A stretch of 60,632 nucleotides of DNA from a virus (taxonomy: Duplodnaviria; Caudoviricetes), in IMG/VR virus record IMGVR_UViG_3300031885_000014, positions 1-60,632 of that record. The stretch is one strand, 5' to 3'. Made by a program: the position numbers and the translations under genes. The notes beneath the pieces are model-generated. The model saw nothing but the letters and a program-made list of their open reading frames with translations. It had not been told where the DNA came from and did not search any database. Positions 2,911 to 16,153 of the stretch are shown here, piece by piece; within the stretch, counting starts at the first letter, position 1, and each line of letters starts with the position of its first letter.

Positions 2911-3097
2911 AGTCGCACGGCGCTGTGCCGTCATCTGGCAGGGGGAGACTGGCGGCTACATGATCGAGGTAGGTCGGTACACCGCCATTGGCATCGCTGT
3001 TGACGTGCATAAGTTGGTCTTCCCTGACTGGCCGAGTGCTGGCATGGCCCTGATTGACTTCTTCGAGCCGCCCGCTGAGGGCGAGGAAAGGACGTGA
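2897..3097 (+). CDS. hypothetical protein
   Basis: AAGGAG RBS; resembles the next ORF (GGY.I/L....L.(F/V)PDW..A..AL.D.F). Confidence 0.6.
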   Translation: MEIGKVARRCAVIWQGETGGYMIEVGRYTAIGIAVDVHKLVFPDWPSAGMALIDFFEPPAEGEERT

Positions 3098-5058: not shown

Positions 5059-5990
5059 GTGAGAGAATTGGCACTATGACCCGCCCACTCTGGGCTCCTA
5101 GCCTCCCCATTCTCGTCGTCGGCGATTTCTGCACCGACGTGCTCCTGCGGGCGAATGCTAGTCGCTTGTCCCGCGAGCACCCAGTCCCCGTACTGGATCT
5201 GGAGGACATCGTTCACCAGACCGGCTGCGCTGGCAACATCGTGCGTCAACTGGCGGCATACGGCGTGGAGACGCGCCTGGTCACACTCGCCCATGCCATC
5301 AAACTCCGCGGCCTCTGCGGGGTACCGGAGCACGAAGCCTTCCGCCTCGACGGTCCCTGGGAGACGGAGTCGGACCGAGTCAGAGCGCAACGGTTCGAGG
5401 CTCTGGCGCACACCTCCTTTGCGGCCGCCATCTATGCCGACTACCGGGGGGTGCGTGGGCCCGTGCCGGATGAGCGGGCCTTTCTTATGGCGCTAGGGTG
5501 CCCCCTAATCGCGGACGCTCGCCACTCACTCGGCGGCTGGCGGGGCTTTGCGGTCGTGAAGGCGAACAGTGGAGAGGTGGGGGTAAGCCTGGAGGCTTCT
5601 GGCCGCCTAGCGCACGCACAGCGGCGCCTCGCCGAGGGGCAGTACCTCATCCTGACATCTGGAGCGCGGGGCCATGCCTTGGTGGCGAGGGATAGGGTTG
5701 AGTACTTCCCGGCTGTGGACCTACCTGGCCCCGTCCTGAACACGAGCGGCGCCGGTGACGTCTTCACGGCGACACTGGCGGTTCTCTTGGCCGCTGACTG
5801 GGAGCGGTGTGGCAACAACCCCAGCGCCGAACTTGTCCATGAAGCATCGAAGACGGCCGCCCTGGCCGCCGGCCTGCGGATTCGCAAGCCGGGCTACAAT
5901 GAGGCCGTCACGTGGGAGGAGATAGAGGGATGCGGAAGGCTAGCGCCCCGCTGCAAATCCGCTACGTTGACCCCGCAAGCCTCAAGCTGA
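5052..5990 (+). CDS. PfkB-family sugar kinase, HldE/RfaE heptose-7-phosphate kinase-like
   Basis: ILVVGD...RLSREHPVPVL...GCAGN matches the HldE N-terminus; PfkB signature NTSGAGDVF. Confidence 0.8.
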   Translation: MVSERIGTMTRPLWAPSLPILVVGDFCTDVLLRANASRLSREHPVPVLDLEDIVHQTGCAGNIVRQLAAYGVETRLVTLAHAIKLRGLCGVPEHEAFRLDGPWETESDRVRAQRFEALAHTSFAAAIYADYRGVRGPVPDERAFLMALGCPLIADARHSLGGWRGFAVVKANSGEVGVSLEASGRLAHAQRRLAEGQYLILTSGARGHALVARDRVEYFPAVDLPGPVLNTSGAGDVFTATLAVLLAADWERCGNNPSAELVHEASKTAALAAGLRIRKPGYNEAVTWEEIEGCGRLAPRCKSATLTPQASS

Positions 5991-7210
5991 ACGAGCAGAA
6001 CCCGCGCCTGATGCCGCCCGAGGAAATGGCGGCGCTCAAGCGTTCGCTCGCCAAGTGGGGCTTCGTCGATCCCATCATTGTCCGGCGTGAGAACGGTGAG
6101 GTGATCGGCGGGCATCAGCGCATCGCCGCCGCTGCTGAACTCGGCATAGCGACCGTGCCAGTGGTGGACGTCGATGTCTCTGAGATAGACGCACTCCTCC
6201 TGAACGTGGCCCTGAATCGCATAGCGGGCCGGTGGGACGAGGGCAAACTGGCGCTGGTGACGGAGGGGCTGCGGCTGGAGGGGGCAGACCTGAGCCTGAC
6301 GGGGTTCACCGAGGGGGAGCTGCGGCTCTACCTCCAGCCCAAGCCCGGCCTGACCGATCCCGACGCCATGCCGGAGGTGCCGGAGCCCGTCTCGAAGACG
6401 GGCGACCTCTGGCTCTGCGGCGATCACCGGCTGCTGTGCGGCGACGCGACGAAGGCGGAGGATGTCGAGCGGCTGATGGCGGGGGAGAAGGCGGAACTCC
6501 TCTGGACTGACCCGCCCTATGGCGTCGGCGTAGGTGACAAGAATAAATGGCTCAACTCGATTGCTCGGAGCAATCGAGTTGAGGAGAACCTGGCAAATGA
6601 CACCTTGGATGAACCGGCCCTCGTGGCGATGCTGGGTGCTGCCTTCGATCTGGCTATCCCCTCGTGCACCGCCGGGGCCGCGTGGTATGTAGCGGCCCCG
6701 GCGGTGCCGCTACATGTGCTTTTCGGGCTTGCACTCAAGGAGCGCGGCATCTGGCGGCAGACACTTCAGTGGGTCAAGAACAATGCGACCTTCGCGCCGA
6801 TGGGCGTGGACTATCATTGGCAGGCGGAGCCGATCTTCTATGGCTGGCTACCGAATGCAGCGCATCGTTATCGCGGTGGCCGCCAACAGACGACCGTCTG
6901 GAATATAGACCGACCAACGAAGTCGCCTGAGCATCCCACCATGAAGCCCGTCGAGTTGGTGGAGCGAGCTGTGGCGAACTCGTCAGACCCTGGCCACATC
7001 GTCCTCGACCCCTTCCTCGGCTCCGGCACCACCATGATCGCCTGTGAGCGTTTGGGCCGGCGGTGCCACGGCATGGAGATCGAGCCGCGATATGTGGACG
7101 TGGCCGTGAAGCGCTGGGAGCAGTTCACAGGCCGGGAGGCGCAGCTAGAGCCGATTTCGCAGCCAAACGCCGCGCTTGCCCGCAAGCGCGCGAGGCCGAA
7201 CCTAGCGTAG
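5930..7210 (+). CDS. ParB-N domain fused to N4/N6 DNA methyltransferase
   Basis: NPR...GFVDPII...GGHQR (ParBc); TDPPY; HPTMKPVEL; VLDPFLGSGTT. Confidence 0.9.
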   Translation: MRKASAPLQIRYVDPASLKLNEQNPRLMPPEEMAALKRSLAKWGFVDPIIVRRENGEVIGGHQRIAAAAELGIATVPVVDVDVSEIDALLLNVALNRIAGRWDEGKLALVTEGLRLEGADLSLTGFTEGELRLYLQPKPGLTDPDAMPEVPEPVSKTGDLWLCGDHRLLCGDATKAEDVERLMAGEKAELLWTDPPYGVGVGDKNKWLNSIARSNRVEENLANDTLDEPALVAMLGAAFDLAIPSCTAGAAWYVAAPAVPLHVLFGLALKERGIWRQTLQWVKNNATFAPMGVDYHWQAEPIFYGWLPNAAHRYRGGRQQTTVWNIDRPTKSPEHPTMKPVELVERAVANSSDPGHIVLDPFLGSGTTMIACERLGRRCHGMEIEPRYVDVAVKRWEQFTGREAQLEPISQPNAALARKRARPNLA

Positions 7211-7227: not shown

Positions 7228-9924
7228 TTGTCAGCCAAACAGCAGTACGTCCGCCTTCCGGCCGAGAAGATAGCCCAGCGGCGTTACCACGTCCGCCGCC
7301 TCGACCTGCTCGGGGCCTCCGTCCCCACCATCATCGCCACCCTCAGAGCCCAGGCCCCGGAACTTGTCGGCCGCCAGGCCGCCCTCGACGACATCATCCG
7401 GCTCGACCTCAAACACACCCGCGCCCTGGCTGTCGAAGACCTGGCCGAGTTCGGCCCGGCCTCCCTTGGCGCCCCTGCCTTCGCCGACTACATCGCCACC
7501 AAGCGCCTGCTGCTGAACCAGGCGGTGGCGCTGGCCGAGAACCCGAGCATCAAGGACACCGCCCGCGCCCGCTTCCTGGCCGTGGCAAGTGCGGCGGCTG
7601 ACGACATCGCCCGGGCCAGGGGCGTCAACGTCGACCGTCCGACCTTCAACCTGAACGTCATCCTCAAGCAGCAGCTCCTGGCACTGGGGATAGCGCCGGA
7701 GACCGTCGAGTCACTCATGGCCCCGGCTGGCGTGCCCCTGTTGCCCGCCGCCACCGCCGGCGCCTGGCCAGGCATCGTGGATGCGCTCACCTTCGCCATC
7801 TCGCCCGAATTCTGCAACCTGCCCAACATCCTCCGGGACTACCCGATGCAGGAGCAGGTGCTGCGGGAGTTCATGGGACCGTCATCTCGTTACCGGACGC
7901 TCATCCTGGTCTGTGGCATGCGCTCCGGCAAGGGCGTCGTGGGCAGCATCGTGGCCTGGTATGCGGCCTACACCCTCCTGTTGCTGGCCGACCCCCAGCA
8001 CTACTTCGGCCTGACGCCCAACCAGGAGATCTCCATCGTCACGATGGCCACGAGCCGGGACCAGGCCCGGCGCAACGTGTTCAAGCACATCGAGGACCGG
8101 CTGGAGACCGGCGGTGCATGGTTCCAGGCCCTGCGACCCCAGACCGAGATCGCCGGCCTGGAGATCCACCTGCCCAAGAACATCGTGATCCGCTGTGGCC
8201 ACAGCAAGGCATCGACCCAGGTGGGCGGCACCAACTACCTGGTCATCCTGGACGAGTTGGCCCGCATGAAGGACACCGAGGGCCGCGACAATGCGGACGA
8301 GGTGTACGACAAGATGAACGCCACCACGGCCACCTTCCAAGACGAGGGCAAAGTGCTGGTGCTTACGTCGCCCGAGTGGGAAGGCGACAAGGCCATGCGC
8401 CTGCTGGAGGAGGCGGTTGAGGTTGACGGCGACGGCCGGGCCGTGCGGCCCCAGATGATGGGGCTCCAGATGGCGACCTGGGAGGCAAACCGGACGTTCA
8501 CTGAGGAGTGGCTGTGGGAGGCCTTCGACGGCGAGGCCAACCCGATCGCCTTCTGGCGCGACTTCGGGGCGCGGCCCCCGCTGGCCGTCGAGGGTTACTA
8601 CCCCGACCCGGAGCGGTGGGACCGGCAGGCAGACCCGGAACTCCGCGACCCCTACGACGAGGCCGGCCAGCTCGCCGACTGGTGGAAGCCCTGCTGCGAC
8701 GCCAAGCGGTACGTCCACGTCGACCTCGGGGTGAAGCGCGACGCCTGCGGCCTGGCGATGGCGCACAAGCCTGTGCTGGGCTGTCCCTACTTCCAGGCCA
8801 GGGACGGTGAGCCGAACCCGAGGGCGAAGGCCGTCGTGGTGGATGTCGCGCACCGCCTCGTGCCCAAGCGGCAGCGCGAGGCGAAGGGGGAAGTCTCGTT
8901 CGAGAAGGTGCGGCAGATGATCCGCGACTGGTCCGACCGCGGCTTCAACATCAAGGGCGGTGGCGTGTCCTATGACGGCTGGCAGAGCATCGACAGCCGG
9001 CAGATCCTCAAGCACGAGGGCTTCCGGGTCAGGGAATACTCACTGGACCGGGACACGGAGGGCCACGACACGCTGCAGGAGCTCGTCAACACCGACCGGC
9101 TGGCGTACCCGGCGCACCCTGTGCTGATCGCGGAGGCGAAGCGGCTCGCGTTGGTGCGGGGCAAGAAGGTGGATCACCCGAAGGGCGGCTGCTTCACGGG
9201 AGACACGAGAATTGCCCTGCTCGACGGGAGCAATCCGACCATCGCAGAATTGGCGGCTCGCGGGCCGGGGCCGTATCACGTCTTTACGATGGGCGAGGAA
9301 GGAATCACGGTCGGAGTTGCACACTCGCCGCGTTTGACCTCGCCGGATGCCGAGATCATTGAGTTGACACTAGATGGGTTCGAGACGATTCGGTGTACGC
9401 CTGACCATCGTTTCCGCCTGCTGGATGGTCGCCACAAGGAGGCTCGCTGGCTCCTTCCATCCGATAGACTTACGCCCCTTAACCGAGCGGTGGTCATGGA
9501 GGGCGGCTGGCAAGGGTATGTGCGAATTGTCTGCCCTCTCAATGGCCGCCGGATGCTTCACGATATCGTCGGGCAATGGAAATGCGGCCCGAAACCGAGC
9601 GGGATGCTTTACCACCACGTCGACAACGACGGGACCAACAACGATCCCACGAACATCGAGTTACGCAGCCAGAAGTCCAGGGAGACCATACTCGCCAATA
9701 TGCCCAAGCTCTTAGTCGGCCGTCGGTCGGGCCAGAATCATCGCGTCGTGAGAATAAGGGCCGCTGGTCATGCCCCTGTCTACGACCTGACCGTAGAGGG
9801 TACGCCCAACTTTGCTCTTTCCGCTGGCGTGTTCGTTCATAACTCTAAGGATGTCGTGGACGCCGTTGCCGGCGCCGTCTACCACGCGCTGAAGCGGGGC
9901 GGTCGGCAGGCGTTCGTGGGGTAG
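7228..9924 (+). CDS. terL: terminase large subunit with N-terminal TerS-like extension and an intein
   Basis: Walker A GMRSGKG, Walker B LVILDE, coupling motif LTSP, nuclease motifs HVDLG / YDGWQS / KVDHP..GSKDVVDA. Confidence 0.9.
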   Translation: MSAKQQYVRLPAEKIAQRRYHVRRLDLLGASVPTIIATLRAQAPELVGRQAALDDIIRLDLKHTRALAVEDLAEFGPASLGAPAFADYIATKRLLLNQAVALAENPSIKDTARARFLAVASAAADDIARARGVNVDRPTFNLNVILKQQLLALGIAPETVESLMAPAGVPLLPAATAGAWPGIVDALTFAISPEFCNLPNILRDYPMQEQVLREFMGPSSRYRTLILVCGMRSGKGVVGSIVAWYAAYTLLLLADPQHYFGLTPNQEISIVTMATSRDQARRNVFKHIEDRLETGGAWFQALRPQTEIAGLEIHLPKNIVIRCGHSKASTQVGGTNYLVILDELARMKDTEGRDNADEVYDKMNATTATFQDEGKVLVLTSPEWEGDKAMRLLEEAVEVDGDGRAVRPQMMGLQMATWEANRTFTEEWLWEAFDGEANPIAFWRDFGARPPLAVEGYYPDPERWDRQADPELRDPYDEAGQLADWWKPCCDAKRYVHVDLGVKRDACGLAMAHKPVLGCPYFQARDGEPNPRAKAVVVDVAHRLVPKRQREAKGEVSFEKVRQMIRDWSDRGFNIKGGGVSYDGWQSIDSRQILKHEGFRVREYSLDRDTEGHDTLQELVNTDRLAYPAHPVLIAEAKRLALVRGKKVDHPKGGCFTGDTRIALLDGSNPTIAELAARGPGPYHVFTMGEEGITVGVAHSPRLTSPDAEIIELTLDGFETIRCTPDHRFRLLDGRHKEARWLLPSDRLTPLNRAVVMEGGWQGYVRIVCPLNGRRMLHDIVGQWKCGPKPSGMLYHHVDNDGTNNDPTNIELRSQKSRETILANMPKLLVGRRSGQNHRVVRIRAAGHAPVYDLTVEGTPNFALSAGVFVHNSKDVVDAVAGAVYHALKRGGRQAFVG
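9190..9843 (+). mobile_element. intein (218 aa) with HNH homing endonuclease
   Basis: Starts CFTGDTRI; block B CTPDHRF; ends VYDLTV...NFAL..GVFVHN followed by Ser; internal HHVDNDGTNNDPTNI. Confidence 0.92.
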
Positions 9925-9941
9925 AGATGAAAGGAGAAAGC

Positions 9942-10571
9942 ATGAACCTCTGGAAGGAATACAAGGTCAGCCTCCAGTTCACCAACGAAATCATGGGCGG
10001 TATGCCCAAGAACCCCGAACTCATCCGGGACTGGCTTGAGGCACGCAAGGCGCCGGACCCGGAGAAGAACGCCGAGGAGATAGAGGCGGGTATCGAAGCC
10101 AGCGAGGATCGTTCCTGGTCTGGCTTCCAGCGTCAAGGCGGTGCTGGTCTCTGTCTACGGGGCTATCACGTCAAGGCGCACATCAAGGACTGCGCCAACA
10201 TCCTTCGCGTCATGCTGCCCAAGCGCGCCAAGTCGGACGGGACTGAGGTGGCGATGGCGTGGCGGAGCATGATCGCCGACCGGTGCTACGTCCTGGAAGA
10301 CTACATCCCTCTGGGCGCCCAGGAAGCGAGCGGCTTCTTCGAGCACCCGGTCCACGTTATGACCAGGCAGGGACCGCGCAACGCCCTGAAGCGGACTGAC
10401 TACGTGGACAAGCCCAAGATCACCTTCACCCTGAAGCTGCTGGCCGACAAGGTGGTGACGGAGCAAGTGTTGCGCGACCTGTTTGAGTACGGCGGCACCC
10501 ACGGCATGGGGAGTGACCGGGGTATGGGTTTCGGGCGCTACGAGGTAGCCGAACTCACAGAGATGGTTTGA
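9942..10571 (+). CDS. solitary Cas7/RAMP-like RNA-binding protein (Vipr/Csf2-like)
   Basis: N-terminal strand YKVSLQF..EIMGG; L...HVKAHIKD helix; ITFTLKL strand; C-terminal G-rich loop YGGTHGMGSDRGMGFGRYEV. AAGGAG RBS favours ATG 9942 (alternative 9927). Confidence 0.75.
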   Translation: MNLWKEYKVSLQFTNEIMGGMPKNPELIRDWLEARKAPDPEKNAEEIEAGIEASEDRSWSGFQRQGGAGLCLRGYHVKAHIKDCANILRVMLPKRAKSDGTEVAMAWRSMIADRCYVLEDYIPLGAQEASGFFEHPVHVMTRQGPRNALKRTDYVDKPKITFTLKLLADKVVTEQVLRDLFEYGGTHGMGSDRGMGFGRYEVAELTEMV

Positions 10572-10967
10572 CGGCGAGTACTGCCTTGTTTTGGAGTGTG
10601 CTGGAGTGTGTTGCCGTGACGGCGAGGAGTGGCGTGGGATGATGTGGACTGACCCTGGACTGCCGTGTTCTGGACTGACGGCGAGTAGTGTTTTGCGTCG
10701 GAGTGAACTGATGTGGAGTGCTGTGACGGCGAGTCCTGGAGTGAGGCGAGGCGTGCTGGACTGTCGCCGAGTACTGAACTGCCATCCGGTGCGATGATGT
10801 GGCGGCGAGGACTGCCCTGGGCTCAAGTGTACTGTTCTGACGCCGAGATATGATCTGTGGTGCCGTGGATTGTGGTGCCGCCGAGAATCGGGTTGCGGTT
10901 GCGCTGAGATGCGGTGGCTTGACCTGCCGCCGAGGTGTGCAGTGGTCTGAGATGACTTGACATGATT
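10569..10967 (+). ncRNA. array of nine pentamer-periodic guide-like RNA units
   Basis: Boundary motif TGNCG(G/C)CGAG at 10569, 10617, 10676, 10724, 10762, 10800, 10838, 10876, 10925, each followed by 3 nt and 5-9 pentamers; 50 of 56 pentamers begin TG. Confidence 0.8.
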
Positions 10968-10985: not shown

Positions 10986-11064
10986 AGGCGGGCCGGGACC
11001 ACGAGCCGCGAGGCAGCGGGCGCCGTCTCACCGGTGACCCGGTCCCGCCCATAGAGGAGTTGCG

Positions 11065-13627: not shown

Positions 13628-16153
13628 ATGCCCGAACTGCAAACTCGTCCCTACACCGGGGTCGGCGACGACACCCTGCCCGCCAATGTGAAGGCCCTGC
13701 CCGATCACGCCAAGGCGATCTGGGTGGCCGCGTTCAACAGCGCCTGGGACTCCTGGTCCGCCGACAAGACCGACCAGCCTCAGGACGGCTATGCCTTCGC
13801 CGTCGCCTGGGCCGCCGTCAAGAACCTCTACAAGAAGGACGCCGAGGGCAACTGGACGAAGCGCAGCCTCATAGAGGGCGACGGTCACTTCACGAAGGTC
13901 TGGCGCTCGGCTGACGGCGTCCACCGCTGGCGAGCGACCGTCATGGACGACGGCGTCGATCAGTACGCCACGCGTATGACCATCGAGTTCCAGGACGATG
14001 TCTGCGCTCGGGCGGCCCTGGAAGGTGCTCCCTGGCTCGGCATCGCCCACTTCGGCAGGCAGAGCCAGGTGGGTGAGACGACCCGTCTTTACCGCGACGG
14101 CCGCATGGTGAAGGCCGAAGGGACGTTCCTGACAGATTCCGCAGATGCGACGCAGGCCAGCCTCGCCCGCGCCGCATACGAGACGGCGGCCAAAGAGGCA
14201 GACCTTCTGCCGGCACACCGCACGATAGCGGTCAGCCAGGCGTTCTACCCCGAGGCGCAGGCCATCGAGGATTGCGGCGTGGTCGCGTTCACGCGCGGCC
14301 GCATCGAACACATCGCCCTGACGACACGGAAGGCCAACTCACGCTGTGATTTCGGCGTGGAGGAAGGTGACGAAATGCGTAGAAGTAAGAGTCGGCGCGA
14401 TCTTCGGTTAGAGGACGCTGCCGCCATCGTGGGCGACGACCTGGCCCGCGCCCTGGACGAGGCGGATGCCGAGCACCGAACCGTCGAACAGGACGGCCTC
14501 CTGTACCGGATGTACGAGGTCGAGGACGGCGACGGATCCCGCATCGAGGTGAGCCCCGACGGCGGCGAGACATGGCAGGACGCTGAGGTTTGCGTTCGTG
14601 CCATGGTGCCGACTCACAAGCCTCCGCTCAACGACCCGGCCACCGCCTGGAATGCCGCCGCGGCCCGCTCATCTATCTGGGGCTGGGCGACTGATGGCGA
14701 GGACTTCGACGCCGTCAAGGCCCGGCAGGGCTTCGCCATCTTTGACAGCGACAACCCGGACAACAAGACGGGCATGGCCCTGCCCCACCATGACATCGCG
14801 GACGGTAAACTGGTCACCCACCAGAAGGGCGTCATGGCTGCCGGCGGCGTCACGATGGGCGCGCGTGGTGGCATCAAGGAGTTTCAGTCAGGCGACAACG
14901 AGCGCGCCCAGACCCACCTCGCCGTCCACTACGGCCAGATGGACCGGACGCCGCCCTGGAAGCGCGAGGAGAGCAACCTGCGCCACTGGGCCGAGGCCAT
15001 GGAGGAGGCGGAACTTCTGCACGGCGAGGAAGACCTGGCAAATGCCCGCGCCTTCCTGCGTCACCGGCTCGACGATGGGACGATTAAGCGGCCCACTGTG
15101 GCCGAGGCGAAGGCCATGTTCGAGAAGAGAACTCAGGGTCCGGGCGCCGCCCTCCTACGGGCCACAGGCGAGACGGACTTCGCCACCGCCATCAAGGCCG
15201 TCGTGAGCGACCCGGACAGGGTGGGCAGCGCCCCACAGGCCGAGACCCGCGAGGGCCGGCGCGTCAGGGCCGAGAAGCTGGCCCAGGTCGCCGATGCCGT
15301 CAAGGCCCTTACCGGCGCCGGGAAGACTATCGGCGAGTTCATCGCCTGGGCGTCCGAGAACCTACGGGCCGACTCCTCTGGGTCAGAGCATCGTGCACTG
15401 AGTCCCGACGCCGACTTCCGCGCTGCGTTGACCGAGCGCTACGGCGCCGAGCCGGACGCCTCCCTGCTCGCCACAATGAACCAAGAAGCGCTTATGCAGA
15501 CGGTCTACCAGGCCAGTTACACCTTCAGGGACATCGTGATCGCCAACATCCAGGCGGACCCGGCCGAAGTCAGTCTGGAGGAGCGCCTGGCTAACGTCCA
15601 GAACGCGCTCAACGAGTTCGGCCAAATCATAGCGAGCATCATCAGTCAGGCCGCGCAGCCCAGATCGAGCGAAGGCACCAAAGGCGGCACAGGAGAAGGC
15701 GTGAAGCCGGACGGCGGGGGTGGGGCACCCGTCAAGCCGTCGGGCGAGTCGGACTCCGAGGCCCAGGCCGCAGTGAGTGAGAGCCTCGACCAGATCAGGG
15801 CGGCACTCGGGGCGGGTGTGGACGCTGGAGAGATGCAACTCCTCCTCGACCAACTGGCCCACCGGATGAGCCAATGCATCGACGTTCCACCCCCTAGTTT
15901 CGAGGAAGCCCTGAGCCCGATCATGGATCGGCTACAGGCCATCGAGGACGAGATACGATCTCGCTCGGCTGGCCCGGAGAGATCCACGCCTGACGGGCTA
16001 GGCGCGCCGCCCCGGCGCAAGGGCTTTCGGCCGCGGCTCGATGCCCCGGCGCTCCGCAGTGCGGACGCCGACCGGCCCACCGAGCGCGGCTATTCACCAG
16101 AACAGTTCGCAAGAGGCGCCCACAGGCGGCAGGCGTTCAATCCCTACACGTAG
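13628..16153 (+). CDS. ChaB domain - prohead protease-like - scaffold fusion
   Basis: ChaB motif LP.HAKAIW.AAFNSAW...AFAVAWAAVK..Y.K; protease-like H..S..EHIALT..AN; helical C-terminus; lies directly before the capsid gene. Confidence 0.7.
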   Translation: MPELQTRPYTGVGDDTLPANVKALPDHAKAIWVAAFNSAWDSWSADKTDQPQDGYAFAVAWAAVKNLYKKDAEGNWTKRSLIEGDGHFTKVWRSADGVHRWRATVMDDGVDQYATRMTIEFQDDVCARAALEGAPWLGIAHFGRQSQVGETTRLYRDGRMVKAEGTFLTDSADATQASLARAAYETAAKEADLLPAHRTIAVSQAFYPEAQAIEDCGVVAFTRGRIEHIALTTRKANSRCDFGVEEGDEMRRSKSRRDLRLEDAAAIVGDDLARALDEADAEHRTVEQDGLLYRMYEVEDGDGSRIEVSPDGGETWQDAEVCVRAMVPTHKPPLNDPATAWNAAAARSSIWGWATDGEDFDAVKARQGFAIFDSDNPDNKTGMALPHHDIADGKLVTHQKGVMAAGGVTMGARGGIKEFQSGDNERAQTHLAVHYGQMDRTPPWKREESNLRHWAEAMEEAELLHGEEDLANARAFLRHRLDDGTIKRPTVAEAKAMFEKRTQGPGAALLRATGETDFATAIKAVVSDPDRVGSAPQAETREGRRVRAEKLAQVADAVKALTGAGKTIGEFIAWASENLRADSSGSEHRALSPDADFRAALTERYGAEPDASLLATMNQEALMQTVYQASYTFRDIVIANIQADPAEVSLEERLANVQNALNEFGQIIASIISQAAQPRSSEGTKGGTGEGVKPDGGGGAPVKPSGESDSEAQAAVSESLDQIRAALGAGVDAGEMQLLLDQLAHRMSQCIDVPPPSFEEALSPIMDRLQAIEDEIRSRSAGPERSTPDGLGAPPRRKGFRPRLDAPALRSADADRPTERGYSPEQFARGAHRRQAFNPYT

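Follow-up and report, generated by a model that had tools for sequence, protein, structure and literature searches.

We identified a compact gene-array module on the phage genome IMGVR_UViG_3300031885_000014 (Duplodnaviria; Caudoviricetes), a record of the IMG/VR database that we analysed over its whole length of 60,632 bp (hereafter the window; G+C content 63.7%, CheckV completeness 100%). The module spans 1.1 kb (positions 9942–10964) between the genes for the large terminase (TerL) and the portal, and combines a gene for a small Cas7-like protein, which we call vipr-like, with an array of pentanucleotide repeats on the same strand. We read it as a two-component, RNA-guided system of the VIPR type, with a probability of roughly 80%. 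The presence of a genuine 5-nt-periodic array next to the vipr-like gene is confirmed by the data that follow.

VIPR systems were first described in 2026. According to the available portions of two preprints (10.64898/2026.04.26.720920 and 10.64898/2026.04.26.720927), they consist of a ~20-kDa RAMP protein, Vipr, found mostly in phages, and of guide RNAs (vrRNAs) in which 9–16 YNNGG (GGY/NN) repeats are followed by a structured tail. One Vipr protomer occupies each repeat, with the GGY bases flipped out and gripped by a thumb and a G-loop, and the NN bases pair with double-stranded DNA (dsDNA), skipping every third target base, with the skips at codon wobble positions; either strand can be bound. 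Bench work in these sources is limited to the GGY/NN type II. The original prediction for the window, made from its letters alone, had pointed to a system of one such protein with GGY/NN RNAs, and this system is indeed in print, with one protomer per repeat.

The window array is made up of nine units, each formed by an 8-nt separator, or handle, and a guide of NNNTG pentamers (Table 1). An open reading frame (ORF) of ~209 codons with a glycine-rich loop, whose stop codon opens nine related units of strict 5-nt periodicity, had been predicted, and gene and array were both found as described. TG ends 58 of the 64 pentamers, as read by eye from the pentamer layout, and 44 of 70 TG dinucleotides are followed by another TG at +5, compared with a mean of 12.0 (standard deviation 3.0, maximum 21) in 2000 dinucleotide-preserving shuffles. 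The handles start 48, 59, 48, 38, 38, 38, 38 and 49 nt apart. The last G of each guide is at the same time the first base of GACGGCGAG, so that this G doubles as the first letter of a 9-letter motif, and the true separator is 8 nt long with a register shift of 3. Within each unit the 5-nt register is strict, and because every handle shifts it by 3, a global phase count is flat. Using the anchor definition 'CGAG + at least 3 of 4 NNNTG', we detected eight anchors on the + strand of the window, seven in the array and one at position 3033, and none on the − strand; shuffled windows contained 0.36 on average and at most 2. The isolated anchor at 3033, far from the array, is probably due to chance. 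Tandem Repeats Finder detects almost nothing in the array, because its units are not sequence repeats. The array RNA is rich in G and U and folds no better than its shuffles (z −1.35), as expected if a protein holds the RNA extended. Three ORFs overlap the array, one of 68 aa on the + strand and two on the − strand, of 223 and 316 aa; a protein-coding role was ruled out for them by the 5-nt period of the conserved features and by unit lengths of 8 + 5n.

Table 1 Coordinates of the vipr-like gene, the array and neighbouring features in the window.
Feature	Position	Strand	Remarks
ParB_N + N6/N4 DNA methylase fusion gene	5912-7210
Large terminase gene	7228-9924		898 aa; contains an intein (Intein_splicing residues 705-872, HNH_3 (HNH endonuclease) residues 776-815)
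Shine-Dalgarno AAGGAG	9931..9936	+	5 nt before ATG; read from the sequence
vipr-like gene	9942..10571	+	ATG 9942, stop TGA 10569-10571; 209-aa Cas7-fold RAMP
Nine handle-plus-guide units (candidate vrRNA precursor)	10571..10964	+	co-oriented with the gene, starts at its stop codon
Motif G[ACG]CG[GC]CGAG, nine copies	10570, 10618, 10677, 10725, 10763, 10801, 10839, 10877, 10926
Unit 1	10571..10618	+	handle 10571-10578; 8 NNNTG pentamers
Unit 2	10619..10677	+	handle 10619-10626; 10 pentamers, one extra base past the fifth
Unit 3	10678..10725	+	handle 10678-10685; 8 pentamers, 7 ending in TG
Unit 4	10726..10763	+	handle 10726-10733; 6 pentamers, 4 ending in TG
Unit 5	10764..10801	+	handle 10764-10771 (variant TCGCCGAG); 6 pentamers, 5 ending in TG
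Unit 6	10802..10839	+	handle 10802-10809; 6 pentamers, 5 ending in TG
Unit 7	10840..10877	+	handle 10840-10847; 6 pentamers, all ending in TG
Unit 8	10878..10926	+	handle 10878-10885; 8 pentamers and one extra base, 7 ending in TG
Unit 9	10927..10964	+	handle 10927-10934; 6 pentamers, all ending in TG; end of the array

Pairing of protein and array, with a fixed relative orientation, recurs across the family, bearing out the expectation that homologues would have adjacent 5-nt-periodic arrays. In a forward comparison of 50 IMG/VR loci encoding a relative (26–91% identity), 39 carry at least three anchors no more than 2.5 kb from the gene and on its strand (32 of 40 with near-duplicate loci dropped). 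The array lies downstream only in 30 of the 39, upstream only in three (L017, L018, L027) and on both sides in six (L036, L038, L041–L044), always on the gene strand. Nearly all + strand anchors (375 of 376) are that near the gene; two occur on the opposite strands, in 285 kb. The reverse comparison, a scan of IMG/VR by the bare array pattern, yielded 77 stretches; 33 had at least two matches, and 26 of these 33 loci encode a homologue, in every case on the same strand and 8–503 nt away. For six of the other seven the array is at most 106 nt from the end of the stretch. In L099, a 10.7-kb IMG/VR stretch, four pattern matches 1.4 kb from the end are accompanied by no detectable protein homologue; this array may be orphaned, or paired with a more distant partner. 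Among 185,579 species genomes, only four loci, all in metagenome-assembled genomes, encode a homologue; all four have TG-periodic arrays, three of them with the CGAG handle.

The arrays of these relatives show a common layout. They reach 24 units in under 1 kb, and long arrays elsewhere contain irregularities like those of the window, namely non-TG pentamers and inserted bases. In many cases the first handle and the stop codon of the gene before it overlap, TAG forming the first three letters of the handle or TGA ending on its first letter (L004, L009, L017, L019, L021, L036, L045 and the window). At most two TG pentamers precede the first handle in 23 of 32 arrays, and a handle follows the last guide in 18 of 32. 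A subclade (L022, L024, L025, L028, L029, L030, L032, L038, L040 and L047) carries, interposed between gene and array, a conserved ORF of 83–134 aa with no Pfam match; this ORF is a candidate accessory (vap-like) gene, and the window lacks it. A cultured cyanophage, Microcystis phage Mae-JY09 (L083; PP395641.1, 37713-38976), encodes a distant relative (26% identity). The genome end that follows it, ~500 nt of C-rich non-coding DNA in which GAC-containing motifs recur, may represent a further non-canonical array, and one whose phage and host are tractable.

To describe the repeat, we collected 211 distinct clean units comprising 1369 pentamers, over which the predicted fixed motif, TG in place of GGY, holds. 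T is present in 93% and G in 98% at the two fixed positions, both partly imposed by the parser, and the three N positions carry almost no information (0.02, 0.01 and 0.09 bit). The handle follows the consensus N-[C/A]-G-N-CGAG, with G at position 3 in 90% of units; its final CGAG is invariant by requirement of the parser and is thus not an independent result. Units contain 4–12 pentamers family-wide, most often 5–7, and 6–10 in the window. The free letters turn over rapidly: a phage whose Vipr is 92% identical has a different set of guides and shares only TG and the handles, whereas near-identical contig pairs have their guides in common.

The predicted structure model of the vipr-like protein has the RRM/RAMP fold of Cas7, as had been anticipated, with a long β-hairpin ('thumb', residues 131–156) and a G-loop (residues 183–200) within the glycine-rich stretch YGGTHGMGSDRGMGFGRYEV (residues 183–202 of 209). 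Structurally it comes closest to subunits that form the backbone of RNA-targeting complexes of types III and VII, at 8–16% identity. An alignment of 70 relatives including the window protein contains the invariant residues P22, F62, K82, G144, K150, G188, R193 and G198 and the C-terminal consensus YGGxHGxGxERGxGxGRY; at position 192, which is near-invariant and mostly E, the window protein has D. The protein is without any recognised curated family: Pfam and PHROGs returned chance-level matches, NCBIfam none, and a PDB sequence search a single chance match; the family profile matched PDB entries at the G-loop only (E 0.4–1.4), and PADLOC gave weak G-loop matches to Cas6, Csm4 and Cas5 (E 0.005–0.04). 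The family is nevertheless large. A word-indexed search found 92 relatives and an exhaustive one 1278 clusters at 50% identity with E <= 0.001, nearly all of them unnamed metagenome proteins. It belongs almost wholly to uncultured environmental phages, as the 50 IMG/VR loci against four in the species genomes illustrate.

To compare this family with characterised Vipr, we located the SUSP1 vipr gene in GenBank by its anatomy, as a 195-aa gene with GGYNN tracts on both sides and a 146-aa gene after it. Seven of the eight residues named in the structure paper are in place (H17, E71, M72, R138, C173, D177, W178 and R179 are present), and the named residue T175 is V in the GenBank record. When profiles built from 70 homologues of the window protein and from 45 of SUSP1 Vipr were aligned, hhalign gave a probability of 81.5% (E 1.1e-5) over 134 columns spanning helix 1, thumb and G-loop; the G-loop acid D177 of SUSP1 aligns with D/E192, and its stacking W178 with the invariant R193. 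This constitutes moderate sequence evidence that the two families are homologous. Pairwise searches gave no link to characterised Vipr: phmmer found no match, and tblastn against GenBank phages gave five distant matches (25–27% identity), none to SUSP1. A direct tie to the published seed X1U2U4 was sought by cluster accessions, and none was found; the marine-sediment member of the window family is GAJ05663.1, listed without a UniProt name, and that of the SUSP1 family is X0TDZ5. Taken together, the profile homology, the fold and the type of locus match the authors' definition of the Vipr family.

The window array has TG missing in 6 of 64 pentamers and a one-base insertion in two units, and with no accessory gene and no identified target it might be taken for a decaying or orphaned remnant that has lost its function. 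We regard this as very unlikely, because the ORF is intact and has a good ribosome-binding site, all eight family-invariant residues are present (invariance being defined on 70 sequences that include the window's own), long arrays at other loci are irregular in similar ways, and the phage genome is rated complete.

The surroundings of the module bear on whether the array could instead act as DNA. The vipr-like ATG lies 18 nt past the stop of the 898-aa large terminase, and a gene for a ParB_N–methylase fusion lies 2.7 kb upstream, with homologues within the stretches of 4 of the 50 related loci (L002, L003, L005 and L040). This setting, between terminase and portal, would suit iterated protein-binding sites used in packaging or partition, recognised by the terminase or the ParB-methylase, for instance, and the RAMP-like gene would then be a chance neighbour. 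Homologues of terminase and portal, however, adjoin the vipr-like gene and array in none of the 50 related loci, in which the RAMP gene is the constant neighbour, the orientation to the gene is fixed (375 + strand against 2 − strand anchors), and the strict 5-nt register, free bases and 8 + 5n lengths match the repeat logic of Vipr, not iterons. An array of DNA sites is therefore exceedingly improbable. Since the neighbouring genes are not conserved, gene and array move together as a small module.

Further features of the window were recorded around the module. Beyond the portal gene, an 841-aa protein (13628-16153) has an N-terminal ChaB domain. Between the array end and the portal start lies a GC-rich inverted repeat of 16 nt, 75% complementary (10987-11002 / 11034-11049), and the region folds no better than shuffles (z −0.39). 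The window has no tRNA, no Rfam match was obtained in the gene and array region, no direct repeats of at least 20 nt and no CRISPR-like repeats occur in the 60.6 kb, and no Cas1 was found in a scan that covered Cas1 and four flanking proteins.

By analogy with the SUSP1 Vipr filament, we infer the following course of events for the VIPR-type system proposed here. The ~394-nt array, starting at the stop codon, would most likely be co-transcribed with the gene and give rise to nine short guide RNAs, the precursor being cut or trimmed at the 8-nt handles. One protomer would then settle on each pentamer, its thumb and G-loop gripping the flipped-out invariant T and G, and the variable bases would be exposed to pair with a target carried by a rival phage or another mobile element, transcription of the target being silenced upon binding. 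That the target is DNA, not RNA, that it is read with a period of three, and that the system serves competition between phages are likewise suggested by the SUSP1 precedent.

The same components might alternatively read RNA, pairing antisense to messenger RNA as Csm3, Cmr4 and the type VII Cas7 do. The structural matches to RNA-targeting type III and VII backbone subunits point this way, and so does base composition: in 18 high-GC loci (730 triplets), no sense model describes the guide triplets as well as one in which they are reverse complements of coding trinucleotides and position 3 faces the wobble base; its log-likelihood per triplet is −3.977, compared with −4.079 for the pooled null. 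This composition signal, however, is confounded, one clade having G at position 3 in 60–80% of its pentamers; it is missing in low-GC loci, and in the window's own clade the triplets are sense-like, if anything. We had also considered as a wobble signature the dependence of guide GC on locus GC, which has a slope of 1.64 at position 3 and of 0.40 and 0.59 at positions 1 and 2, and rejected it on the same ground, the high-GC loci belonging mostly to that one clade. Stop triplets are only mildly depleted in the guides (74 observed, 96.3 expected), which speaks against a full reading of the guides as in-frame sense codons. As characterised VIPR binds dsDNA on either strand, according to the preprint portions available, and no nuclease partner is present, we consider an RNA target improbable here.

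Searches for targets gave one lead, which is antisense to a gene and in this respect also speaks for an RNA target. The IMG/VR query consisted of pentamers 1–9 of a 12-pentamer guide in a related phage, L029 (L029:4038-4097), each written as two letters plus a wildcard. All ten matches (L057-L066) lie antisense to a single segment, coding for the Walker A motif (LGGREG[I/M]GK), of genes for a Toprim + AAA_25 primase-helicase, with the wildcard facing the wobble base; a scrambled control gave two unrelated matches. In the best records the full guide agrees at 22 and 21 of 24 bases, which none of 100 shuffles equalled. The L029 phage itself (complete, 31.9 kb) is without a Toprim + AAA_25 primase-helicase gene. 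The third free base matches at 6 of 12 positions in this lead and thus offers no argument for a contiguous reading. Other searches returned nothing comparable. Two further long guides from related loci had no matches in IMG/VR, and the remaining L029 guides did not converge on the same primase-helicase records. Against the L029 phage's own genome, one guide matched at 17 of 20 bases, a score equalled by 1 of 100 shuffles and not significant after six tests. For 200 guides set against 350 kb of local sequence, with skips of 0–3 and all three positions scored, there was no excess over shuffled guides; the same 200, with two positions scored, showed no excess at periods 2–5 in the ten loci of the L029 lead. 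These local scans revealed neither self-targets nor cross-targets. We hold the lead as tentative, with the odds somewhat against its being genuine, and a period-3, wobble-skipping reading in this family as plausible.

Several observations weigh against assigning the window locus to VIPR. The consensus is NNNTG and not GGY/NN (YNNGG), and the structured 3′ tail of type II is absent. No ORF that could be an accessory (vap) gene, a usual but not constant part of VIPR loci, lies between or beside the vipr-like gene and the array in the window. The link to Vipr at sequence level is only moderate, hhalign against the single SUSP1 sequence being uninformative (probability 2.5%), and at the level of structure the protein is matched to Cas7 in general, since no VIPR entry is among the PDB copies searched. 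Fewer than three anchors were found in 11 of the 50 homologue loci, among which two end 30 nt past the gene and several show TG runs with a separator other than the CGAG handle. In IMG/VR, unit 1 of the window has eight random-looking matches (five distinct sequences), and unit 2 has none. A 6-pentamer guide reading two bases per repeat specifies just 12 nt. Finally, no promoter-like site was seen 5′ of the array; together with the lack of a terminator-like site 3′ of it on the + strand, this fits co-transcription with the terminase-to-portal operon.

The short guides bring up a variant of the proposal, in which the repeat of three free letters and the 8-nt tag would constitute an undescribed recognition rule or array logic, unlike characterised VIPR. 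Only the TG of each pentamer would be sequestered, and three bases would read the target, offsetting the shortness of the guides; handle, guide and handle would follow one another in a single precursor from the upstream gene's stop codon, a layout nearer to a CRISPR repeat-spacer array with 8-nt CRISPR RNA (crRNA) tags than to the described type II VIPR. We think this doubtful. Were it true, the clade would be a candidate intermediate between VIPR and CRISPR RNA architecture, with a new three-of-five recognition rule. The repeat code of this family illustrates the extent of possible drift, to two fixed and three free letters with an 8-nt separator, and it poses a concrete alternative: a reading that includes the third free base departs from the published one-nucleotide skip, and one that omits it leaves 12-nt guides, which raise a question of specificity.

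The VIPR-type system that we favour shares several features with SUSP1 VIPR type II. Both are phage-borne, encode one small RAMP (~200 aa) that combines an RRM core with a thumb and a G-loop, stand alone as one- or two-gene loci outside CRISPR-Cas with no cas genes, and carry beside the gene, on the same strand, pentanucleotide-repeat guides of fixed and hypervariable positions, the latter turning over fast. They differ in that SUSP1 has 9–16 GGYNN repeats with two free positions, whereas the window family has TG fixed and three positions free; in that the SUSP1 vrRNA is ~100 nt long with an invariant structured tail, whereas the window family has only an 8-nt handle between guides arranged head to tail; in that vap1 follows vipr in SUSP1, whereas the window locus is without vap; and in that the Trp stacking on G2 in SUSP1 corresponds to an invariant Arg.

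Class 1 CRISPR-Cas systems are the other point of reference. Their crRNAs carry an 8-nt 5′ handle, and the likeness of the window's 8-nt handle to it is a lead only. The closest solved folds are Cas7 backbone subunits (type VII Cas7, Csm3, Cmr4, Csf2), at the low identities given above, but the window locus has no CRISPR array, Cas1 or partner subunits, and its guides have an internal 5-nt repeat, which crRNA spacers do not. Long direct repeats with spacers, adaptation genes and a multi-subunit effector are all wanting, and the locus is not CRISPR-Cas.

Among VIPR systems, the departure of the window family from GGY has published counterparts. The original prediction had suggested that the locus may be an undescribed variant; the non-GGY motif stands, but its novelty is doubtful, since the available portions of the preprints already list other repeats and staggered arrays. 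One (10.64898/2026.04.26.720920) mentions 'a related consensus', with NNNGG, YNNNG and NNNNG repeats and single-gene loci, as well as staggered arrays, where each vrRNA starts on the final nucleotide of the one before it, a 1-nt overlap; in the window, similarly, the guide-final G begins the next motif. Another, on a genomic language model (10.64898/2026.10.21.760802), reports 21 clusters of non-canonical cores beside Vipr-like folds, including TGH/NN and WGT/NN, with repeats modelled as three fixed and two free positions. Like those arrays, ours has a period of 5, a Vipr-like fold beside it and a fixed core other than GGY; unlike TGH/NN, going by the published text descriptions, the base after TG is not restricted to H, being G in 28% of cases, and the base before TG carries 0.09 bit overall. 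The VIPR preprint texts examined contain no mention of an 8-nt CGAG handle, 'NNNTG' is absent from the main text of the VIPR preprint, and literature from 2025 on, searched for NNNTG, TGNNN and NTGNN, gave only barcode-design papers among the matches listed. We conclude that the locus is a real and well-supported, non-canonical VIPR, most likely a further case of the kind described in 2026.

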